Origin: Naegleria gruberi
Taxonomy: Eukaryota
Assembly: GCA_000004985.1 (NCBI GenBank)
Contig: GG738860.1
Length of the DNA: 64,000 bases
Strand: one strand, 5' to 3'
Shown here: positions 162 through 32,977 of the stretch, piece after piece
How positions within the stretch are numbered: position 1 is the stretch's first letter
Layout of the letters: every line of letters begins with the position of its first letter
Notes under the pieces: model-generated
Database searches by the model: none
What the model saw: the letters and a program-made list of their open reading frames with translations, nothing else
What the model was told of the DNA's origin: nothing
Position numbers and translations under genes: made by a program

Positions 162-2941
162 TTAATAAGTTCCTTGATACATTTCATCAATATATGTTCT
201 GTACTTTTGAACAATATTGTTACGTTTAAGCTTGAAAGCAGCTGTTAAGAGATCGTTTTCAGGTGACCAAACATCATCAAAGACACGAATGGCCTTAATT
301 TCTTCATATCTCTTAAGCTTGTAGGTCTTAGCCAATTCTTCCAATGATTTCAAGATGTGTTGTTGGACCTTTGGATGTTTACAAATTTCAGAGAAGGTAC
401 CAGTAATGCCATTTTCTTCAGCAAATCTCTTGGTTGGACCTGGTTGAGCGATGACAATGGCAACAGGGAATGAACCGAAGCTGTCTCCATAGACCATGAT
501 ACCATTTGGTGCAACGTATGGACAACCGTTATAGATACTCTCCAATCTTTCCAAAGCAATATATTCACCATGGGATAACTTGACTAAATTCTTAACACGA
601 TCAATAATTGAAATTGTACCATCCTCATTCCTAAAAAGTTGAATTGTTGAAAAGTAAAAGGTCAAATTAGTATTCAAAAAGAAATGTAAACCTACAATTG
701 ACCAACATCTCCTGTCAAGAAGTATCCATCTTCCATGAATGCTTCCTTTGTCTTTTCAGGTTGCTTATAGTAACCTAGGGCGACAGAGTTACCTCTGATG
801 GCAATCTCTCCTCTTGGTACTGGGCTATCTGCCAAATAATTCAAGTGTGGAACTGAGATTAATTTGATTTCAACACATGGAACAACAACACCAGCAACAT
901 TGGTTTGGAATTTAGCTTCTGGCATTAAAATGACCTAAAGAAATGTTAAATCTTCTCTCCACGATAAATCTTCTACTTACACCTGCAGCACTAGTCTCAG
1001 TAAGACCATATCCTTGGAAGGTACTGGCTCCAAAGCAAACTCTGAAGAATTCTTGACTTTGTTTTGAAAGTGGAGCACCTCCAGAAAGGCATCCTACCAA
1101 TCTTCCACCAGCCATACTCTTAATCTTTCTGAAAATCAAAAAGTTGAACAATGGTGTATCTCTTCCATTCTTAAGAGCATTAAGTTTACAATCATAAGCA
1201 GTCTTGAAAAGCCATTGAATGATTGGTGAACCTGCCTTAATCTTTTCAGAAACACCCTTCTTAATGGTGTCGTATCTGTATGAAAGATATAATAATAAGG
1301 ACATTAGTCGCATATAAAATCATTTCGCACAAACAATCGCAGATTTAAATTAACCAAAAAAAAGCTTGAAAACTTACACTCTTGGTACACCACAAAATAT
1401 TCTTCCGTAATAAATTGAAAAAAATGTACGAAAGATAGTTAAGCACAAATTGACAATATCAGCCACTACTTACTGAGGTGCTACAGCTTCAAGATCACCA
1501 ACAGGTCTGGCAGTCTAATTATTTGAAGTGAATTATGAAACATTGAAATGTTAATAATTATCAAAAAACACTACTTGCCTTAGTTGTAAGAGTTTTGGAG
1601 TTTCCGTATCCGATTTTTCCTGTTTTATGAATGTTGTGAAGTAAACGTGATTTGGTGTGGAATTTGGTAAATAATGATATTGTTGTAACATTTTACATTC
1701 TTTTGAATACTACTACTTACCTCCAAGACCCAAGATGTAATGTTCAGCAGCCATTTCCAAAATGTGAGAAAGTGGAAGATATCCCAAATAAGTCTAGTAT
1801 TACTGTAATGAGCAATCAATTTTAAAATGAGATACTTACTCTATTGTCACATTATTAATAATGGTGAAAAACTGAAATACTTACGGATTCTTGACGTGTG
1901 GCAAACCAAATTGCTCACGTGCACCCACGGAAATCGAAAGTATATTTTTTGCTGTTAGCATTACACCTTTTGGCTAATGATTAGAATACAAATAGATTAG
2001 ATCTGTAAATAATAATTCATAATTACCTTTGAAGTAGTTCCGGAAGTGTACATGACAACAGTCAAACTATCACCTCTTTGTTCTTCCTTAACTGGAATTG
2101 GATTTGTTTCTTGTTTTCCTAATTCTTCAACTTCTTCAAAGGACAAAACAGAAACACCATTCTTTTCCAATTCAGCAATATGCTTTTGAGTTTCTTCCTT
2201 CTTACCTTCCCAAGATGATGCATAGATGAGGTACTTTAAAGTTGGAGTATTTGGAGTAATTTGATAGGCAAGCTTTTTCAATGATGCTTCATTAACTAAC
2301 ATGGCTGGAAGTTCACATTCATTAACAGCCTCAATGAGTGATTCATCACCCAAAGTAGAGTAAACTGTCATTACAGTAATGTTGTATCTCATGCAAGCGT
2401 GGAGAGTCATTAACCATTCCTTACGAGTTTCTTCAAAGATACCAAAAAAGTCCTTAGAGTTCAAGCCAGTGAAACGTGCAATACCACGTGAAAGATTAAT
2501 AATTCTACTATAGATTTGATTGTAGGTTTCATACTTGACATCGTCAAAGTGGAAAACTTCCCAGTCCTTACCATCAAGCTTTTCAACAGACTTATTCTTG
2601 AAAGTACGACTACCAAGCATTGGCAAATCACCAAATTGTTTAACAACATGATCCAACAGTCCGTTGAGTGTAGTTACACCAGGAACTGGAGTGCTAATTA
2701 ATTCCTTTTCATAGCCAACTCTTCTGATTGGCTTTGTTTCTTCACCAGGTTTATAGTTTGGATCATCGACTTGAACAGTATAGGATTTCAAGTGATCAAA
2801 TCTTCCTCTCAAGTCAGCAGGTAAGAAATCCTTACCAAACAAGATTCTAAAGATGATGTAGCAGAAGCGATCCACCAAAGACAAGATGAAGGCGATAATT
2901 TTCAACAGAAGTGATTTTATCATTTTTTTTTGAAAGTTCAT
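162..2941 (-). CDS. long-chain fatty-acid--CoA ligase (ACSL-type acyl-CoA synthetase), about 9 exons
   Basis: AMP-binding signature YTSGTTSK|PKGV is split by a 50-nt intron. Other family motifs: YLGYLPLSHILE, FCGVPRV, GYGLTETS, GDVGQL|NEDGTISIIDRVKN, GEYIALE. Exons phased by hand: 2941-2027, 1976-1896 (or -1885), 1793-1721, 1619-1572, 1513-1474, 1401-1378, 1275-981, 934-696, 630-162. All junctions are GT..AG. The junction after exon 2 is ambiguous (see findings). Confidence 0.85.
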
Positions 2942-10515: not shown

Positions 10516-12107
10516 ATGATTAAAAGTAAAAGTTTAATTTCTAGTGTTCGGAACTTTAACCATCAATTTAGAGTGAAGGGATTAATTAATTCATGTTTGA
10601 AAATTAATGCAAATTTTAATAGTCAACACGAATCAACCTTCCGATTTTTTTCTTCATCATCAATGAATAGAAATCGAAATGATGATTTTCTTTACATATT
10701 GAAAATTAGAGGACAAGAACAACCAAATAATTGTGATTCTTTGAGAAAGTTTCCAACTCTTTATTTGGTGGTTGCCCTTTTGGTAGCTGGCTATTCCTAT
10801 TCAATTATTTCATCCCTTCTTTCGTGTAAGTAAATCACCCATATTCTCTGAAAATTCACACAACAAATAAGCTGATATGGTTTTGGATAAGATGATTCAG
10901 GAAGAGAATGGAGAAATTAATTTACAAAAGGCCTCTATCATGCCACTCAGTTGTAAGTTATTACTTGTAATATTTTGTAATCATTTAATGGAATTTTATA
11001 GTATTTGCCCTGTTGAAAATTAAAGAAAAGTATATGGGCAATATTGAGAAAGATCTCGAGTCAAACGATGCAATTAAGAGAAGGAATGCCATTCAAATGA
11101 TTTATCAAATGTGTTTGGATAGATCATTGGCTAAATCAATAATTTTGGAAACTAATTGTCTTGAACGTTTGGTAAATCTGGTACCATACGATAAACAATC
11201 AAACGTATCAAGAGATGAGAGTGACCTAATTATTGGAGTTTTGAAAATGATGAGCTCTATTGAAAATACTCACGAATTCTTATTGGATAATCTTAGTAAA
11301 TGGGTTAAACCATATAGAATACGAAAGGAGTTGCACTCTATAGAGGCATTGGATAATAATTATATTACAATTATATACAATATTCTATCTACACAAAAAT
11401 CCAGACAATTATTAACTGACGAAAGGATTGAGAAACTAATTCAATTGACATTTGAAATATCCAAGGCAAGCACAGATAAGAGAGTGATAAACTTGGCAAA
11501 TTATTCCACTGAAATGCTTGTTAGACAATCTAAGGGAGAACCAGATGATGGTCAAGCAGATTCACTCATGAAAGATTATACTGAAAAGTATGAAATTTTC
11601 AAATTCCTTTCAAACAACATCTCACTTCCATTGCTAGCCTTTGGTTATGCCTTTTTGAGATATAAATGGAGAATTAATAGACAAGGATACAATCATTTTG
11701 GATTCAAGGCTCAAAATCTCAATACACTGTCAATTTACAACTCGTTGAAGAGTGCAGTGGTTGTAAGTGCAATGGCATGGTCTGTAACTTCTTTGGATTT
11801 TTTCGAGTATAGACAGGGGTTGAAAGATCACTCTAATTGCTCAACCAATGAGGAGCTATTTAACAGACTCAAGACTAGGGCATATAGACAGGAAGTTGAA
11901 AAGGTAGCTCAAAACTTCTTGTTCCCATTATTCTTGGCATGGGTTTTGGGTAGAGTGGAATTTATCATACTACCATACATTTTACTTCAGGCAAGCAGTT
12001 CATCTAAACCAAGTAGTTTATTAGAAAATTTAATAGATCTTCCCCCTCAGTATGTAGAATCTCAATTGAATTATATTCAAACAAGCATTGAGACTGAAAA
12101 GAAATAA
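10516..12107 (+). CDS. hypothetical membrane-anchored armadillo-like protein, 3 exons
   Basis: ATG 10516 sits in an AAAAAAATG context. Exon 1 (10516-10825) ends at a GTAAGT donor, and a 46-nt intron joins in frame to 10872-10952. A second intron (10953-11001) leads to 11002-12107. There is a TM segment LYLVVALLVAGYSYSIISSLL, then ARM-like helices (AIKRRNAIQMIYQMCLD...LERLVNLV) and C-terminal hydrophobic segments. An alternative start is ATG 10877. Confidence 0.55.
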
Positions 12108-12112
12108 ACCCT

Positions 12113-13696
12113 TTACCATTCATCATCTGAATCAGTATCAGAATCCTCTTCGTCATGGATACCAGTGTTAGAGAACTTTTTCATGAGATATGACTTGAAA
12201 CCTTCCTTTTCATTTTCTGTAAAATCAGTTACAGGTGGAGGTGTTGGATTCTTCAAATTGTCCTTAGAGAAAGTCTTGATTTCAGAAAGGAAGTCAGCAG
12301 GCTTTGATGGAAGAGGTGGCTTTGAGACTGGAGGGGAGGTTGGAGTGGCCTTTGGTTTGACCTCAACCTTAATTGGACCTCCTCCCATTGGTGGTGGTGG
12401 TGGAATAGCTCCAACAGGAGGTGGTGGTGGAATAGATCCTCCCATTGGGGGTGGTGGTGGTACAGCAAAACTTCCTCCTCCCATAGGTGGTGGTGGTGGT
12501 GGAATAGATCCCATTGAAACTGGTGGTGGAGGTGGAATACTACCTGCTCCTCCATCATAGTCATCTGAAACATATGAAGTCATTGGTGGAGGTGGTGGAA
12601 CTGATCCTCCCATTGGTGGAGGTGGAGGAACAGATCCCATAGATACAGGCATAGGTGGAGGTGGAGGAACACCACTGGATGGTGAAGAAACTCCAAAAGG
12701 TGGTGGAGGAGGTGGAACTCTTCCTGAAGATGCATCACTAGAGACTGTTCTAATCTCATCAACAATTTGATTGTCATCTTCATGTGCCTTTTGTCTTTGT
12801 TTGGCAACTTTCTTTTCATACTTGTGCATGAGTTTTTGGAGACGTTCTTGAGTCTTTGGATCATTAGCTTCAACACCCATACCTCCCAAAACGTCCAAGT
12901 ATTCAGTTGGAAGACCGCTAGCTTCAAATTGGCCAGTTTCATGATTGATACCAACGTGAGCAGTGTTTTGGAAATTCTTTACAGAGCCCATTCTAAAGTT
13001 TGATCTTGAAGGTCTATTGTCAACTGGTTCTTCGACTGGTTTGACTTCTTCCTTCTTCAAGAACTTATCCTTGACACCTCTAAAGAAACCAAAGACACCA
13101 CCTGCTGCCTTTTCTTCCTTCTTTGGTACAGGACTACTTGGAGAAGATGTTTGAGGGAGTGGATTCTTTGGCTTGTCATTGGATGGCTTACTGATTGATT
13201 CAGGAAGTGGTGGTGGATTACTTGTTGCATTTGATGATACACTAGTTGGTGGAGAAGCAGAGACAACATTAGAGAGACGGTTGTTAACAAAGCTGCTAAA
13301 CTTTGAAGCAGCAGTCTTACTATTCAAGGCAACATTGATACCAACAATTCTATCATCGCTTTCAAAGGAAATAAAATTGTCATTCAATTGTTCAAATTGG
13401 AATTGTTCATAACATTCATGAGACCAAGTAACTTGATTGGTTTCAACATTGATTAGTTTCAAACAAAAGACATTGTTCATCAAATCCTTTCCGAAATAAA
13501 GGGCTCCCCAAATACCAGTATAAGACCATTCTTCTTCACCTTGCATACTTTCATAGATTGAAACAACAGCGCTTTGTTCAACACTCTTTTAAAAATATTA
13601 AGCGAATGATAATTTTATAAATCAACCTACCAAACCCTTAGTGGCAGTGAGAACAACACTAACGTCCAAAGGATCATATAATTCCTTATTGCTCAT
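12113..13696 (-). CDS. WASP-family actin nucleation-promoting factor (WH1-CRIB-polyPro-WH2-acidic), 2 exons
   Basis: Exons 13696-13631 and 13585-12113 with a 45-nt intron. WH1-like N-terminus; [39 protein letters not shown] (12911-13009); about 110 aa of PPPPP repeats; WH2 [15 protein letters not shown]; acidic tail [13 protein letters not shown] ending in Trp. Confidence 0.85.
12383..12718 (-). repeat. degenerate tandem polyproline repeats (GS[IV]PPPPP[PM]) inside the WASP CDS
   Basis: At least 8 units of (M)GG/GS-I/V-PPPPP are visible in the translation. The + strand shows a reiterated ggtggtggtgg motif. Confidence 0.8.
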
Positions 13697-14085
13697 TTTT
13701 CTATTTTTTTTAAAATTTGATATTTTTAATAACCTTGATCATCTTGGAACATGCTGATGATGACTATTAAGATATTAAACTTCGTAAGGGCATGGAACCT
13801 TGTTCACTTTTCAATCACGTCTCTTTCAATGCCAGGCAAAACTATTGTTGCACAAATAAATCTTAATATCTTTCACAACTTCCACTAGCATTTATTTTGC
13901 TGCCTGACAGACAACCTATCAACACTTTAATGATTGCCCTGACATTCATATAGCCTTAAAAAAATGAGCAACAGCCAACGAAAAAGTAAGCAATCAACAG
14001 CAGCAGCAGCTCCTCATCAGAAGCTTCTTCATCACAACAGCAACGGGATGAAAGTCTACTATTGTTAGCCTACGAGGGTGAGAAT

Positions 14086-15549
14086 ATGAAACGATATCCA
14101 ACAAGAAGAGCATCACAATTAGCAAATGAAGCCTTGGAAATTGATAAGACAGATGATGAAGGTTTGTTTTTTCATCAATTAGGAAATTAAATTGAAACTC
14201 TAATAGATTATATTGACGAGGAAGCAGCTTCATCTAGTGATTCCTTTGATGATGAGGAAACTCTTGAAGCTGACTATGAAAGTGATTCAGATTCACAGAA
14301 AGAAAAACCATCATCTAAACGTAAGTCACTCTGTCAAAATATCAATCAATATTAATTTCATTCGTTTACCTTATTAACAACAGGTTCTCAAATATCAAAA
14401 CCTGCTAGACATGTATTAATGTCATGGTTGGAGGAACACTTTGAGCATCCCTATCCTGATGATAACCAAAAAGAAGAATTGATGAAAAAGACCGGTCTCA
14501 CCATTAATCAAATTAATATTTGGTTTGTAAATTCAAGAATGAGAGTGTGGAAGCCTAGGCATCACGATTCACAAATTACCAAGACTGAACCAAATTCACC
14601 AAATGGAAATTCTGATGGTTCAGGAAGTAAGCCAAGACAAGAGAAGAAAATAGACATGTTGAATGATGAATTGAAATCATCACTTGCAGCTCGAATTAAT
14701 CCAAACAATGCCAATGTTACCAGGACAAATATTGTGGGAAGTTTGCCTAATGGTCTACCAACTCCATCCACAGTCATCTGTAGAGGAAACTTACCTAAAG
14801 AAGCTGTTGATTCATTGCTCAAGTGGTTATTCGATAACTTTAGTCATCCATATCCTTCAGATGCAGAGAAAGATGTATTGGCTGAAGAAACAAATCTTAC
14901 CTTAACACAAGTCAACAATTGGTTCATCAATGCAAGAAGGAGAATATGGAAACCAATTCTCCAAAAAATCAAATCAAAGGGAATGGATAAAGATGAACTC
15001 CTTTCTCAAGGAAAACTATCAGAAGTTGCCAAATCATTCTATAAGGACCAGAAAATTGGGGAAGAGGAACCAACAAAGAGGAAATCTAAAAGCTCCAAAG
15101 GAGGTTACAGCTCAGATCATGAAGAATCCACACCTAAAAAGCAAAAGAGGGACAACTCTCTCCTCATACCTCAAGACCTGATGACCCATACAGAGCCAAC
15201 CATTACAAGAGAATCAACGATCAAAACTAGACCAAAAATTGAAAATAACAAATTAACTCATAGAGAGCTATTCATTGATCAATACAGACTCTCAATGGAG
15301 AATCAAAAGCTTGAGGAAGATATTCATCAAGTCTATGACAGGTATGCCTCAGTTTTGGAAAATATCAGTGAAAAGAATGTGAAACTTCTCTCCCACATTA
15401 CCCTCCTCGAACAAAAGCAACAACAAATAAGATTGAATAATGAACTCTTGAAGAAAGAGGTTGATTTATTGAGAAGTAGTAAGGTGGTGAATTCTAATCC
15501 TTTCAACGTGGGTTCATTCCTCGTGGAAGAATTAGGATCTTCAATGTAA
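14086..15549 (+). CDS. TALE-class homeobox protein with two homeodomains and a C-terminal coiled coil, 3 exons
   Basis: Exons 14086-14161, 14207-14320, 14384-15549 (GT..AG, phases consistent). HD1 is PARHVLMSWLEEHFEHPYPDDNQKEELMKKTGLTINQINIWFVNSRMRVWKP. HD2 is LPKEAVDSLLKWLFDNFSHPYPSDAEKDVLAEETNLTLTQVNNWFINARRRIWKP. Both have the TALE 3-aa loop (HPYP) and WF.N.R. The 5' end is uncertain: the frame is open upstream to about 14010 without an ATG. Confidence 0.8.
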
Positions 15550-15554
15550 ATTAT

Positions 15555-16268
15555 TTACAAATTTCTGCATGCAGTGACAACATCAGGATGATGCTCAAGG
15601 TAGTACTTTGAAGCAAAATCAATAAACTCACTTGTTGAACCAATTTCTTGATAGTTGTCACCATTTTCTAGAATGATATATGGTGACAAGAATTGTTGTG
15701 ACCATTTACTCCACACAGATTTAAATGGTTTGACAATCCACGAGCTATCAGTATCAATTTTACTCTTCAAATCTAAGACAGCATTGTAGAATTGTTCATG
15801 GTTTGGGTGTGATTGATAATTATTGGTTACTTTTGGTGAATAGTTTGGTAACTTTTCAGCAATACACTTGGCAATATTAAAGCTCTTGAAGCTATCTTGG
15901 TTTTCTGTATTTACATCTGCAATAATGTGAAAGATAGATTTACTGTTTGCCAATCTATCAGTCAGATATTTATCTTTTCCGAGATGACTATAAAATTCCT
16001 TTCTCTTGTAGAGGATAGATGGATTACTAAGTGATCGTTTGATGATGAGTTGATAAAAGATTATTTGAATAACAACGATCGCCAGAATAATCGATAGTTT
16101 AAATGTTCTGGATGAATTCCACAAATTATCCAATAAGCGGCTGAGAGGAGGAAGTGGTTTTTCCTTGTTGCTATTTGATAATGTTGCTGATTTTGAATAT
16201 GACGATTCCGAGAGGGGAATATCAGCAGAGTGAAGATGTGATCGTGAGTGTGTTTGTGGCAGAGTCAT
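15555..16268 (-). CDS. hypothetical single-pass membrane protein
   Basis: 237-aa ATG ORF with one hydrophobic segment (FKLSIILAIVVIQIIFYQLII). No family recognised. Confidence 0.45.
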   Translation of the reverse strand: MTLPQTHSRSHLHSADIPLSESSYSKSATLSNSNKEKPLPPLSRLLDNLWNSSRTFKLSIILAIVVIQIIFYQLIIKRSLSNPSILYKRKEFYSHLGKDKYLTDRLANSKSIFHIIADVNTENQDSFKSFNIAKCIAEKLPNYSPKVTNNYQSHPNHEQFYNAVLDLKSKIDTDSSWIVKPFKSVWSKWSQQFLSPYIILENGDNYQEIGSTSEFIDFASKYYLEHHPDVVTACRNL

Positions 16269-16319: not shown

Positions 16320-18015
16320 TTACAACATCTTTTTGGAAGCCAACTTGGAGTGATGCTGCAGTTTTTCAATCAACGTTTTCAATCCAGTTCCCATTTGCTG
16401 TTCGTATTGTTGCAAAATTAAGTTGTTGTTAACAAATATTTAATATAAATATGTGGTTAATATAAAAGAGGTAAAAGTTATTGAAAGTATGCTTAAAAAA
16501 ACTTACAACTTGATTTTGCAAACTGGAGAGGGCTGCAGGATCACAGTAAATAGCATCATGCTTAATGAGAGAATCTATTGAGACTATGGTTGGTTCATCT
16601 ATCTTTCCAGTTGTTGAAATATTTTCGATATTTCCTACACTGGTTGGGAAAATATCCTTAATGATCTTTTTGAATGAAGGATAAATGATTGTTTCAATGT
16701 AAATTTCTGTTGGTTGCCTAACACAAACACCGGTACACATTTCAAAAAGCAAATATCCAAAAGATTCCAAAATAGTTCTTGCATTATTGTTAAATGAATT
16801 TCTAGCAAAGAGTAAAAATTGATCTTCCAATGAAGTTAGTTTGCAGTGGTAGTGAACTCCATTTTCATTGTTTGATTTTTCAATTAGAATATTCTTGGAT
16901 GAGATGTGAGTGTATTCAAATCCAATTTGTGAAAGAGACTTTAAAGCACAAAGTATTTGTCCACTAAATTGACTAATAATGTCAGGATCCATAGTATTTT
17001 CTCTCCTTAATGTTTCAATAAGTTGAGATAGGGTTCCAACTGTATTATGCGAAAGATTGAAAAGAGAGTAGCACCTTCCTTGTCCCAATGAAAAATCGAT
17101 ATGAGAAACTGGCATAATGTATGGAGATAAATTTCCAATATTTGACATCAATTGAATAAAAGACCTTCTCATTGTGGCGTCATTAATCATTACTACTGAT
17201 TGACTGGAACAATTTGTATAAACCATCAGTCCAAAGTTGACTCCCACTGCTGTATTTGATTGTGATGAATTTGATTGTGGTAATGTCACAAAATTAGTAG
17301 AACTGTTAGCACTGTTTGAGCTTGAATTATCATCAAAATGTATATTCTTTGATCCTCTATTCTTAATAGTTTGACAATAAGCTAAGGTTTTGTAAGATGA
17401 AGCATTTAAGGTAAGCAATAATTGAAAGTAACTTGTAACAAAATCTTTCAGAGATTCCTTCTTCTCAATGAGTTCATAATCTGTTGGACGTAAGACGGTT
17501 CTAACTTGATACATTAAATCAATATGACCCAGCACTTTCTTTTGATATAAGCTCACATAATCGGTAATTTGTCTATTCAAATTATTATTCTTATACTTTT
17601 GAATGAGATTTGAAAAACCTTCCTTCAAAATATTTCCACTCGAATCATCTGTTGAAGATTTGTGATGATAATAAGAATTGGACAAGGGAATTGTCTCCTC
17701 ATCATCTGCTTCATTATTAATATTTGATGATTTCACTTTTCTAGTTGAAGAAATTCCAAAAACTTGTAAAACCGATTCCGAATTAATACCCGATTCATAA
17801 TATGAAGCCTCTCTTCTTCTCCTAGTTATTATTCTATAAAGAACCAATCCAACACAGGCAAAAAACACCAACACGACCACAATCATCGAGATGATAAATT
17901 CGGGCTTTAAAATAAATAAAACTTCATCTGTTTCCGCATTAGAAGTTGCCATCGTTGAAGTGGAGTCCACCATTAAGTTATTACTGTTCATTACTTTTAG
18001 AATTTGATCTAACAT
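16320..18015 (-). CDS. single-pass membrane protein with a degenerate protein-kinase-like (pseudokinase) domain, 2 exons
   Basis: Exon 18015-16507, GTAAGT donor, 109-nt intron, then terminal exon 16397-16320 (QMGTGLKTLIEKLQHHSKLASKKML*). TM segment FIISMIVVVLVFFACVGLVLY. The catalytic-loop-like THISSKNILI has the HRD Asp replaced, CKLTSLED stands in place of DFG, and a FGYLLFEMCTG APE-region helix follows. Confidence 0.55.
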
Positions 18016-32896: not shown

Positions 32897-32977
32897 GTTG
32901 AGGTGGCCGAGTGGTTAAGGCGCCAGCCTGCTAAGTTGGTGGAGTAATCCGCGTGGGTTCGAATCCCATCCTCAACG
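32897..32977 (+). tRNA. tRNA-Ser (anticodon GCT, decodes AGY)
   Basis: Acceptor stem GTTGAGG/CCTCAAC with discriminator G. D-arm/A-box TGGCCGAGTGGTTAAGGC. Anticodon stem-loop CCAGC-CTGCTAA-GTTGG. The long variable arm is consistent with Ser. T-arm/B-box GGGTTCGAATCCC. Confidence 0.92.

Follow-up and report, generated by a model that had tools for sequence, protein, structure and literature searches.

TALE partner pairs are thought to date from near the root of the eukaryotes, and they act as the haploid-to-diploid trigger in algae, plants and fungi. DUX4 has a pair of homeodomains in a single chain, and these read adjacent half-sites. Genes encoding TALE proteins with two homeodomains have been described in the SPILE B-clade of spiralians (PMC8524836, PMC6118893), and in Marchantia the TALE proteins MpBELL2/3/4, of a 'BELL-gamete' clade, carry two or three homeodomains each (a, b and c) (PMC8476127). 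TALE data from Excavata were explicitly requested by authors in the field (PMC8476127, PMC6219170), and all 12 homeobox genes of Naegleria gruberi are of the TALE class (PMC6219170, Table S1). Here a 64,000-nucleotide stretch of N. gruberi DNA (hereafter the window; 34% GC) was analysed at a gene for which the original prediction had proposed two TALE homeodomains in a single protein of an early-branching lineage; the lineage is Heterolobosea. The protein is a member of a heterolobosean family combining a TALE homeodomain with a coiled coil, hereafter called TALE-CC, a name introduced here.

One protein-coding gene occupies the locus; it has three or four exons and encodes a product of 451-480 amino acids (Table 1). 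Similarity to N. fowleri (RDESLLLL) reaches 5' of the conservative start, and the frame of the more upstream ATG joins homologous downstream sequence only if a GTAAGC...CAG intron of 35 nt (13986-14020) or 38 nt (13986-14023) is spliced. The pathogen N. fowleri has an ortholog, FDP41_005113, with which both intron positions are shared and beside which a WASP-like gene lies in the same orientation as in the window, providing a synteny anchor. No exact match to the window ORF was recorded in public assemblies; the closest sequence, an open reading frame from a metagenome strain (P0001), is 99% identical to the last exon and originates from a 2.4-kb contig that stops short of the 5' end. A metagenome scan aimed at closer orthologs that would cover the 5' exon brought up no contig of near identity, and its best match, L007, is a different two-homeodomain paralog.

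Table 1 Features of the two-homeodomain gene and its divergent neighbour, in window positions; residues are those of the 451-aa model.
Feature	Position	Strand	Basis
WH1 + PBD proline-rich (WASP-like) gene, divergent neighbour	12113..13546	-	Pfam WH1 1.7e-10, PBD 4.8e-4
Possible first coding exon (MSNSQRK...)	13964..13985	+	Putative; region of ATG 13964 resembles N. fowleri N-terminus MNKRKAEKRK
Exon with conservative in-frame start ATG 14086 (MKRYPTRR...)	14021..14161	+	Frame translations, comparison with P0002
Intron, 45 nt, GT...AG	14162..14206	+	Frame restored; homologous intron position in N. fowleri ortholog
Exon: acidic Ser-rich region, then first four HD1 residues	14207..14320	+	
HD1, 63-aa TALE homeodomain, residues 60-122	14308..14559	+	Pfam PF05920, MEIS1 match, pLDDT
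Intron, 63 nt, GTAAGT...CAG, phase 1 in HD1 codon 5	14321..14383	+	Same position (K/R boundary) in N. fowleri
Last exon: most of HD1, linker, HD2, coiled coil	14384..15549	+	ORF list, translation
Inter-homeodomain linker, 70 aa, predicted disordered	14560..14769	+	pLDDT <50
Invariant peptide RINPNNANVTRTNIVGSLPNGLPTPS, running on as TVI into the HD2 arm	14692..14769	+	Ortholog comparison
HD2, 63-aa TALE homeodomain, residues 193-255	14770..14958	+	Pfam PF05920, PKNOX1/MEIS2 matches, pLDDT
Helical extension 3' of HD2, residues 256-291	14959..15066	+	AF2 pLDDT about 96
NLS-like region, two basic clusters (KRKSKSSK ... KKQKR)	15079..15153	+	Putative, by eye
Long alpha-helix / coiled coil, residues 353-433 (81)	15250..15492	+	Single helix, pLDDT 97 (AF2)
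C-terminal motif FLVEELGSSM	15517..15546	+	Recurs in orthologs and paralogs

As originally predicted, both homeodomains lie in one protein and one exon. The open frame 14384-15549, whose stop codon is at 15547-15549, is interrupted by neither a stop nor a splice between HD1 and HD2 (ORF list and translation), and the HD1 strings WLEEHFEHPYPDD...NIWFVNSRMRVWKP and the HD2 strings WLFDNFSHPYPSD...NNWFINARRRIWKP were found in this same translated frame. The domains proposed at 14384-14556 (HD1) and 14782-14955 (HD2) are both real, with bounds that now read 14308-14320 plus 14384-14559 for HD1, a 63-nt intron lying between its two coding parts, and 14770-14958 for HD2. Because that intron falls in HD1 codon 5, the earlier start at 14384 is the exact start of the exon. 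The spacing of about 75 aa was nearly correct, the linker being 70 aa long. Through annotation or assembly errors, two neighbouring genes with one homeodomain each, or an exon present in duplicate, can pose as one protein, and the repeated PKNOX exon of P0124, the two identical KNOX homeodomains of P0189 and the two IRX homeodomains of P0229 give weight to such an explanation. For the window gene it is effectively refuted: HD1 and HD2 are only 47% identical to each other, they share one exon and one frame with no stop, the linker is under protein-level selection, and the same arrangement is present in five independent genome assemblies or contigs and in one transcriptome.

Both domains are genuine TALE homeodomains. 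The Pfam TALE model Homeobox_KN (PF05920) matched two stretches of the protein (E=2.6e-40, 136 bits, cut-off 24), and each homeodomain spans profile positions 1-40 of 40. When searched alone against PDB sequences, HD1 matched MEIS1 (4.6e-15), the best class among solved structures, and HD2 matched PKNOX1 (3.7e-19) and MEIS2 (2.5e-18). HD1 aligns to MEIS1 and HD2 to PKNOX1 without gaps across the loop (HPYP) in which TALE domains have three additional residues between helices 1 and 2, and both contain WF(V/I)N(S/A)R. AlphaFold2 (AF2) predicted three helices per domain with pLDDT >90 (93-98 for HD1 and 95-97 for HD2) and no fixed arrangement of HD1 relative to HD2 (pTM 0.32). Foldseek matches of the predicted model included DUX4 double-homeodomain structures and those of MEIS1 and TGIF1, and one of the two homeodomains superposes on MEIS1 (5bng) with a TM of 0.93 and an rmsd of 0.7 Å. 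The recognition helix of HD2, QVNNWFINARRR, is identical to the MEIS/PKNOX helix, and helix 3 of HD1 is WFVNSRMRVWKP, with V50, N51, R53, M54 and R55. Downstream of HD2, the AF2 model prolongs helix 3 and adds helices at residues 266-271 and 275-291; the motif KG-DKD-L...G-L-E-A of this extension is kept in orthologs.

The MEIS/PKNOX-type residues I50 and R54 (WFINARRR) occur in HD2 only, HD1 having V50 and M54. The HM/MEINOX domain PF16493, listed for the animal MEIS/PKNOX matches, is absent from the full-length orthologs (E≤0.01) and from the window protein (E≤1), for which the query began after the N-terminal 64-93 residues, these being acidic and of low complexity. Pfam searches of the window protein and its orthologs found neither KNOX1, KNOX2 and ELK nor the BELL POX domain (PF07526). 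A KNOX homeodomain would read WFINQRKRHWKP, and the KNOX HMM score was the lowest or second-lowest for every HD1 and HD2; the likeness of HD1 to BELL is limited to V/I/M54 and WKP. No PBC-A/B domain was found by Pfam in full-length orthologs (E≤0.01), position 50 is V or I as against the G50 of PBC (WFGNKRIRYKK), and the animal PBC HMM, at 55-75 bits, was the lowest class for most domains scored. The DUX family has two 60-aa PRD-class homeodomains, whereas HD1 and HD2 are both 63-aa TALE domains, and their sequence matches to DUX4 were weak (25-35 bits) and covered helices 2-3 only.

The two-homeodomain layout is conserved across Heterolobosea and was previously undescribed there. The originally suggested novelty of a tandem TALE holds to that extent and no further, multi-homeodomain TALE proteins having been published in spiralians and Marchantia. 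The architecture was found in N. fowleri, N. lovaniensis and Willaertia (two paralogs), in the environmental sequences P0005, P0126 and P0127 and in the JGI sequence P0008, and transcript GECH01004741 of Pharyngomonas kirbyi is a complete ORF with both homeodomains. HD1 (WFVNxR-V/I/M-R) followed by HD2 (WFINARRR) is the constant order in nine proteins; as this includes the Pharyngomonas transcript, the arrangement goes back to the base of Heterolobosea, and one mRNA carries it. Members of TALE-CC share a MEIS-like HD2-type TALE homeodomain, a short conserved N-terminal extension of it (..ICRGNLPK) and a conserved C-terminal coiled coil. The additional upstream homeodomain, HD1, is confined to one branch of the family. 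In a 19-member alignment the sequence ..(I/V)(C/G)RGNLPK precedes the HD2-type domain and WFINARRR(I/L/V)W(K/R)P lies within it, with R197, G198, L200, K202 ... W243-R250, W252 and P254 invariant. N. fowleri P0011 is a genuine single-homeodomain paralog; that it is a truncated annotation was considered and rejected, as only 253 nt lie upstream and no homeodomain occurs there in any frame. Literature searched on two TALE homeodomains, on the Naegleria homeobox and on FDP41_005113 yielded no description of the TALE-CC family, and the double-homeodomain members go unmentioned in PMC6219170 and those of its supplements that are searchable.

The leucine-zipper-like coiled coil of the original prediction was recovered as the long C-terminal helix, in which L, L, L, V and V occupy the heptad d positions and Asn370 an a position. 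Asn370 is invariant in eight two-homeodomain proteins, at least 90% of the 19 aligned family members have it, and a shift in register occurs near residues 392-400. Two-homeodomain proteins and their single-homeodomain relatives have the coiled coil, with its conserved pattern EN--L ... LE--Q, in common; in the window protein it begins about 100 residues past HD2 and is about 80 residues long. Pfam gave only sub-threshold matches here (Rootletin, APC_N_CC), corresponding to no known domain, and the predicted helix is presumed to be a dimerisation module. Orthologs contain K/R clusters similar to the NLS-like region of the window protein, and variants of its C-terminal motif (FLIEDLCSSL, FLIQELG, LIESLGA, IEALG) occur in orthologs and paralogs, Pharyngomonas included.

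Among paralogs the linker differs in sequence and in length, from about 55 to about 190 aa. Its invariant peptide is identical to that of N. fowleri at 29/29 residues with 17/29 codons synonymously different; N. lovaniensis and Willaertia have the identical peptide as well, and that of P0005 is almost the same. The linker peptide is under protein-level selection. Conservation as a nucleotide-level element was rejected, synonymous sites being saturated. AF2 predicts no structure for the peptide, so that a key conserved element has no role in the model of TALE-CC function proposed below.

Sequence comparison points to internal duplication as the most likely origin of HD1: the homeodomain of the family itself would have been copied before Pharyngomonada and Tetramitia separated, with HD1 as the added copy. 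A fused heterodimer had also been suggested. In such an origin, which is quite unlikely, gene fusion would have joined two ancient TALE classes, with HD1 from a PBC/BELL-like and HD2 from a MEIS/KNOX-like partner, and the protein would be the usual TALE heterodimer in covalent form. Eight of nine HD1s scored best on the family's HD2-type profile (from heterolobosean single-homeodomain proteins) and none on KNOX or animal PBC. Bit scores for the nine HD1s were 84-112 on the family profile, 69-91 on BELL, 61-78 on KNOX and 55-75 on animal PBC, values that are only roughly comparable because the training sets were unequal and some were tiny (two KNOX and three PBC-homology sequences). These scores favour internal duplication over a fusion. 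Residue 54 agrees with a fusion: HD1 has V/I/M there, a hydrophobic type shared with BELL (NARVR), with animal PBC (NKRIR) and with the PBC-homology class of Naegleria/Acanthamoeba (NARVRTWRP), and HD2 has the R of MEIS/PKNOX/TGIF. Position 54 is, however, a single site at which convergence is easy. Likewise, the amoeboid PBC-homology profile was second best for 7/9 HD1s and level with the best for P0003, where it lay marginally above the family profile (94.8 vs 93.7), but HD2 outscored HD1 on that profile in 8/9 proteins, so the similarity is not specific to HD1. Mean identities carry no class signal (HD1-HD2 0.55, HD1-BELL 0.51, HD1-KNOX 0.48), HD1 being as close to HD2 as to any outside class, and Pfam found no remnant PBC, MEINOX, POX or KNOX domain. 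A phylogeny of the separate homeodomains, also proposed originally, was built as a bootstrapped neighbour-joining tree (61 homeodomains, 58 columns); deep nodes were below 15% and the HD1s formed no clade, which leaves room for a very old fusion, and it was the class HMMs that placed HD1 nearest the HD2 type. The specific pairing of KNOX-like with BELL-like classes finds no support in the class HMMs, in the identities or in the orthologs' domains, among which MEINOX, PBC and POX are absent. Following duplication, HD1 appears to have diverged faster than HD2, with a mean within-group identity of 0.58 vs 0.71 and with 36/53 vs 79/88 residues conserved with N. fowleri.

With moderate confidence, two-homeodomain TALE-CC proteins are proposed to be sequence-specific transcription factors in which an HD1 gained by duplication, two homeodomains in cis and a coiled-coil dimer together recognise composite TGAC-type sites. 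HD2, having I50, N51, R53, R54 and R55 as in the MEIS helix, would read a TGACA-type core, and HD1, which retains W48, F49, N51, R53 and R55 with V50 and a hydrophobic residue 54, would probably read a distinct, though related, core of the TGA type. Through the flexible 70-aa linker, one chain may occupy two half-sites, as does the double homeodomain of DUX4, and the C-terminal coiled coil would form a parallel dimer; a parallel dimer of two-homeodomain chains would bring four homeodomains into each proposed complex. Composite-site specificity could thereby be achieved without the MEINOX/PBC-type partner domains of other TALE proteins. The DNA motifs and dimerisation given here for TALE-CC are putative. 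A functional echo of a 'built-in heterodimer' may persist, the hydrophobic residue 54 of HD1 being as in PBC/BELL and the Arg54 of HD2 as in MEIS.

HD1 of the window protein has unusual helix-3 residues (I47, S52 and M54), and its DNA binding might be weak or absent. An unlikely alternative is that HD1 has lost DNA binding and, as a diverged homeodomain fold, serves protein contacts or autoregulation, for example by binding the invariant linker peptide or by masking HD2 until a signal arrives, DNA being read by HD2 and the dimerising coiled coil alone. Besides the atypical residues, the faster evolution of HD1, its dispensability in part of the family (the single homeodomain of P0011) and the need of the invariant peptide beside HD2 for a binding partner are consistent with this. 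Yet all HD1s keep W48, F49, N51, R53, R55 and the PYP loop, the pattern expected of a DNA-contacting homeodomain (W, F, V, N, R, R, W and P of HD1 are invariant in an alignment of eight two-homeodomain proteins), the HD1 of orthologs retains a basic arm (K-R at positions 4-5), and AF2 docked neither the linker nor HD2 onto HD1. A quite unlikely reading would have the protein act as a heterodimer in one chain, with a PBC/BELL-like HD1 and a MEIS-like HD2 on a PBX-MEIS-type bipartite site, the peptide as an intramolecular clamp and the whole as a cell-state switch. If it were true, the 29-residue peptide would position both domains or gate them by phosphorylation, a clamp comparable to the Hox hexapeptide, which docks on the TALE pocket, and switching of the life cycle or cell state (amoeba, flagellate, cyst, cryptic sexual cycle) could operate without two gamete-specific partners.

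For the proposed composite-site factor, the second homeodomain in cis and the coiled coil represent a testable alternative route to composite DNA specificity. Part of the small, all-TALE homeobox set of Naegleria is a phylum-wide family without the usual partner domains, and the TALE-CC protein is a candidate regulator of Naegleria cell-state transitions. Proteins with several TALE homeodomains, from 2 to about 10 of them, occur repeatedly across many protist lineages; those found by profile search are from oomycetes, diatoms, a raphidophyte, ichthyosporeans and Ancoracysta. This recurrence suggests that the rule by which each TALE protein has a single homeodomain is usually stated too strongly.

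Compared with MEIS/PKNOX (PREP; 4XRM, 5BNG, 1X2N), the Naegleria protein has an identical HD2 recognition helix and 53% domain identity, and it differs in its two homeodomains, its C-terminal coiled coil, its lack of PF16493 and the WKP after helix 3, which resembles plant and amoebozoan TALEs. DUX4 (6E8C, 7DW5, 5Z6Z), also with two homeodomains per chain, was the top Foldseek match across both domains and is the best mechanistic analogue, although the resemblance is architectural alone. Its homeodomains are 60-aa and PRD-class, it has no coiled coil, and it belongs to a placental-mammal lineage with an unrelated duplication. The DUX linker, at about 15-20 aa, is much shorter than the 70 aa of the Naegleria protein. 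SPILE-B proteins likewise join two TALE homeodomains in one polypeptide; they are set apart, by description, as spiralian-specific products of an independent duplication, with a modified PADRE domain and no coiled coil described. MpBELL2/3/4 are multi-homeodomain TALEs in a lineage with a TALE-pair haploid-to-diploid switch (PMC8476127), but their own lineage is plant BELL and their partners are KNOX proteins, and HD1 of the heterolobosean family scored 69-91 bits on BELL vs 84-112 on its own profile, on a roughly comparable scale. Plant HD-ZIP proteins likewise combine a homeodomain with a leucine-zipper-type dimerisation helix and bind composite sites as dimers; they have only one homeodomain, which is 60 aa long, lies outside the TALE class and is directly adjoined by the zipper. 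Among Naegleria TALE proteins, Naegr_79931 was reportedly described as MEIS-like and Naegr_78561 as having PBC homology by Joo et al. in 2018. These come from the same organism group and have one homeodomain with MEINOX or PBC-B regions, and the PBC-homology homeodomain (NWFINARVRTWRP) has V54 as in the HD1 group. TALE-CC proteins are without these MEINOX/PBC-B heterodimerisation regions and have a coiled coil instead.

HD1 (WLEEHFEHPYPDD...NIWFVNSRMRVWKP) and, 70 residues after it, HD2 (WLFDNFSHPYPSD...NNWFINARRRIWKP) are read in the same frame of the same exon with no stop, and this frame is uninterrupted over 14384-15549. The Pfam TALE model PF05920 matched the protein twice (E=2.6e-40 for the entire protein). 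When each domain alone was compared with all PDB sequences, HD1 matched MEIS1 (4.6e-15) and HD2 matched PKNOX1 (3.7e-19), and the three-residue TALE loop was spanned without gaps in both alignments; both defining features of the TALE superclass that were tested were found. The structure was predicted with AlphaFold2 from an alignment of 19 family members, with pLDDT above 90 in HD1 and HD2. One homeodomain was superposed on MEIS1 by Foldseek (TM 0.93, rmsd 0.7 A), and the top matches to the whole model were DUX4 double-homeodomain crystal structures. The original prediction of two TALE homeodomains in a single protein is confirmed by these Pfam, PDB, AlphaFold2 and Foldseek results, with slightly refined limits. 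The leucine-zipper-like coiled coil proposed downstream of HD2 was likewise recovered, as a single helix with a heptad pattern (L, L, L, V, V at d positions, Asn370 at an a position, a register shift near 392-400).

The closest database relatives are from Naegleria fowleri (45% identity, 94% of the query), N. lovaniensis and Willaertia magna, and a metagenome open reading frame (P0001) is 99% identical to the window protein. GC content and the pattern of matches suggest a Naegleria species as the source of the window, probably N. gruberi or a close relative. The order HD1-then-HD2 recurs in N. fowleri, N. lovaniensis, two Willaertia paralogs, several environmental contigs and an IMG genome, and the sequence between the domains is under protein-level selection; with the shared exon and frame, this speaks for one protein and against two genes. 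That one transcript carries both homeodomains was borne out by Pharyngomonas kirbyi transcript GECH01004741, which holds a complete HD1-then-HD2 open reading frame. Because the architecture is present in both primary branches of Heterolobosea, Pharyngomonada and Tetramitia, it is as old as the phylum, and it is carried by a single mRNA.

With 34% GC the window is AT-rich; its GT-AG introns are short and its ORFs large. Introns occupy the same two positions in the N. fowleri ortholog, one of them within HD1 codon 5. The homology with the N-terminal part of the N. fowleri protein (RDESLLLL) reaches 5' of the in-frame ATG at 14086, where its reading frame contains no ATG. The ATG at 13964 (MSNSQRK; compare N. 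fowleri MNKRKAEKRK) is out of frame, and joining MSNSQRK to RDESLLLL over 13964-14086 requires either removal of a 35- or 38-nt GTAAGC...CAG intron or a one-base frameshift. The N. fowleri ortholog has no intron at this site; a mini-intron, an indel in the assembly or a displaced start codon could account for the discrepancy. The divergently transcribed WASP-like neighbor also adjoins the N. fowleri ortholog. On the other side, a convergent ORF ends 5 nt from the homeobox stop codon, a spacing identical in a metagenome contig (L002), so the 3' UTRs of the two genes must overlap. This ORF had no Pfam match, and the two larger flanking ORFs, with no Pfam family at E<=0.01, may encode lineage-specific proteins.

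Features of the homeobox gene, its protein, its surroundings and selected relatives
Feature	Position	Strand	Remarks
Exons	14021/14086-14161; 14207-14320; 14384-15549		
HD1	14308-14320 + 14384-14559		refined limits
HD2	14770-14958		refined limits
Invariant linker peptide RINPNNANVTRTNIVGSLPNGLPTPSTVI	14692-14778		29 aa, between the homeodomains
HD2 extension	residues 256-291		two more confident helices (AlphaFold2)
Two basic clusters	residues 296-320		nuclear-localization-signal-like, judged by eye
Coiled coil	residues 353-433		single helix, pLDDT 97
C-terminal motif (F)LIE-LG			common to paralogs including Pharyngomonas
WH1+PBD (WASP-like) gene	12113-13546	-	divergent upstream neighbor
Poly-proline stretch of WASP-like gene	12380-12637		long; imperfect 27-36-nt tandem repeats (PPPPP-M/V-GG units)
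Convergent ORF	15555-16268	-	237 aa
Flanking ORF	16429-18015	-	528 aa
Flanking ORF	11013-12107	+	364 aa
tRNA-Ser (anticodon GCT)	32897-32977	+	sole tRNA found in the 64-kb window
Single-homeodomain paralog P0011	L004 3001-3975		FDP41_001546, N. fowleri
Two-homeodomain family member	L007 (VFQM010021077.1) ~1240-2200		HD1 WFVNARVR, HD2 WFINARRR

The linker peptide is conserved above either homeodomain. The window and N. fowleri share all 29 residues despite synonymous differences in 17 of the 29 codons (HD1 retains 36 of 53 residues), and N. lovaniensis and Willaertia have the identical peptide as well; the constraint acts on the peptide, not on the DNA. P0001 has a V-to-L substitution within it (NANLTRT). 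The peptide is predicted by AlphaFold to be disordered and is missing from the paralogs; our guess is a docking or phospho-regulated motif. The family member on contig L007 has a strongly acidic linker of about 190 aa, so linker length in the family is very flexible.

Since the accessory domains that define the named TALE classes (MEINOX/PF16493, KNOX1/2, POX and PBC) were searched for and none was detectable in the window protein or its full-length orthologs, this protein lies outside every named class. All nine two-homeodomain proteins share the same order and signatures (HD1 WFVN(A/S)R(V/I/M)R, HD2 WFINARRR), and their sequences point to a single duplication predating the paralog splits. 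In a bootstrapped neighbor-joining tree of the separate homeodomains (58 alignable positions), the check proposed with the original prediction, P0011 grouped with HD2 of the two-homeodomain Willaertia paralog P0007 (91% bootstrap); the deep nodes were unresolved, unsurprisingly given the short domain. Such a tree accommodates the ancient fusion of KNOX-like and BELL-like classes suggested earlier as a fused heterodimer, but that origin is not supported. Mean identity of HD1 was highest to HD2-type domains (0.55-0.56), followed by BELL (0.51), MEIS (0.49), KNOX (0.48) and PBC (0.43). Among class-specific HMMs, the heterolobosean single-homeodomain profile scored highest for each HD1 (84-112 bits, one tie), the runner-up for most being the Naegleria/Acanthamoeba PBC-homology class (76-105 bits); for no HD1 did KNOX or animal PBC score best. 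The lack of accessory domains also speaks against fusion. The most economical reading of the sequences is an internal duplication, after which HD1 would have diverged faster.

Relatives with one homeodomain occur in Acrasis kona, N. fowleri (P0011) and many contigs. What they have in common with the two-homeodomain proteins is the HD2-type domain, the ..ICRGNLPK segment before it and the coiled coil at the C-terminus (EN--L ... LE--Q, Asn370 near-invariant). At least P0011 is a genuine single-homeodomain protein and no truncated annotation: only 253 nt of intergenic sequence lie upstream, with no homeodomain in any frame. Because P0011 groups with P0007 HD2 and has no upstream room for an HD1 exon, HD1 was probably lost at least once, here from this paralog in the N. 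fowleri lineage.

HD2 and MEIS/PKNOX have identical recognition helices, so HD2 should read the TGACA-type core established from MEIS/TGIF structures; such structures also appear in the model's PDB matches. HD1 keeps all of its DNA-contact residues (W48, F49, N51, R53, R55) and differs from HD2-type domains at I50 (V) and R54 (hydrophobic), as PBC and BELL domains do; with these substitutions and intact contacts it would be expected to read a related yet different core. The main rival, in which HD1 now serves as a module for protein interaction or autoregulation, would suit its faster evolution and occasional loss, yet fits the intact contact residues less well. With DNA binding by both domains, the flexible linker could place one chain on two half-sites, as in DUX4, and the modeled coiled coil would double the chain to give four homeodomains per complex. 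Composite-site specificity would then be gained without MEINOX/PBC-type heterodimerization. More interesting, if true, would be reading of a bipartite PBX-MEIS-like site by HD1 and HD2, or an invariant linker peptide serving as a regulatory clamp; the two in combination seem quite improbable.

An HD1-linker-HD2 profile search of 1.84 billion representative proteins returned 143 matches below 1e-30. Of the best 150 matches, 138 were newly fetched proteins; a rough count of motifs puts at least two TALE-type domains in about 50 of them. These domains numbered two in Aphanomyces invadans, Heterosigma and Ancoracysta, three each in Cylindrotheca, Cyclotella and Sphaeroforma arctica (P0131, XP_014155130), four in Chromosphaera perkinsii (P0132/P0136) and 6 to about 10 in metagenome proteins. 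P0124, P0189 and P0229 are clear annotation artefacts. Arrays of 3 to about 10 TALE-type homeodomains (W-Y-x-E-H-x-x-x-P-Y-P ... WF-x-x-E-R) were seen in P0121, P0122 and P0123 (ENA metagenome), P0132/P0136 and P0131, the largest being from metagenome eukaryotes. No literature was found on such arrays or describing a two-homeodomain heterolobosean TALE family. Joo et al. 2018 (PMC6219170) count 12 N. gruberi homeobox genes, every one of them TALE, and limit discussion to one MEIS-like and one PBC-homology member. The two-homeodomain feature is real, well conserved and an architecture not described before in Heterolobosea. A single homeodomain, taken as normal for TALE proteins in the original prediction, is the norm but has exceptions: two are encoded by spiralian SPILE B-clade genes (PMC8524836, PMC6118893), and two or three occur in Marchantia MpBELL2/3/4 (PMC8476127). 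The window protein constitutes no new category and belongs with the already known multi-homeodomain TALE transcription factors.
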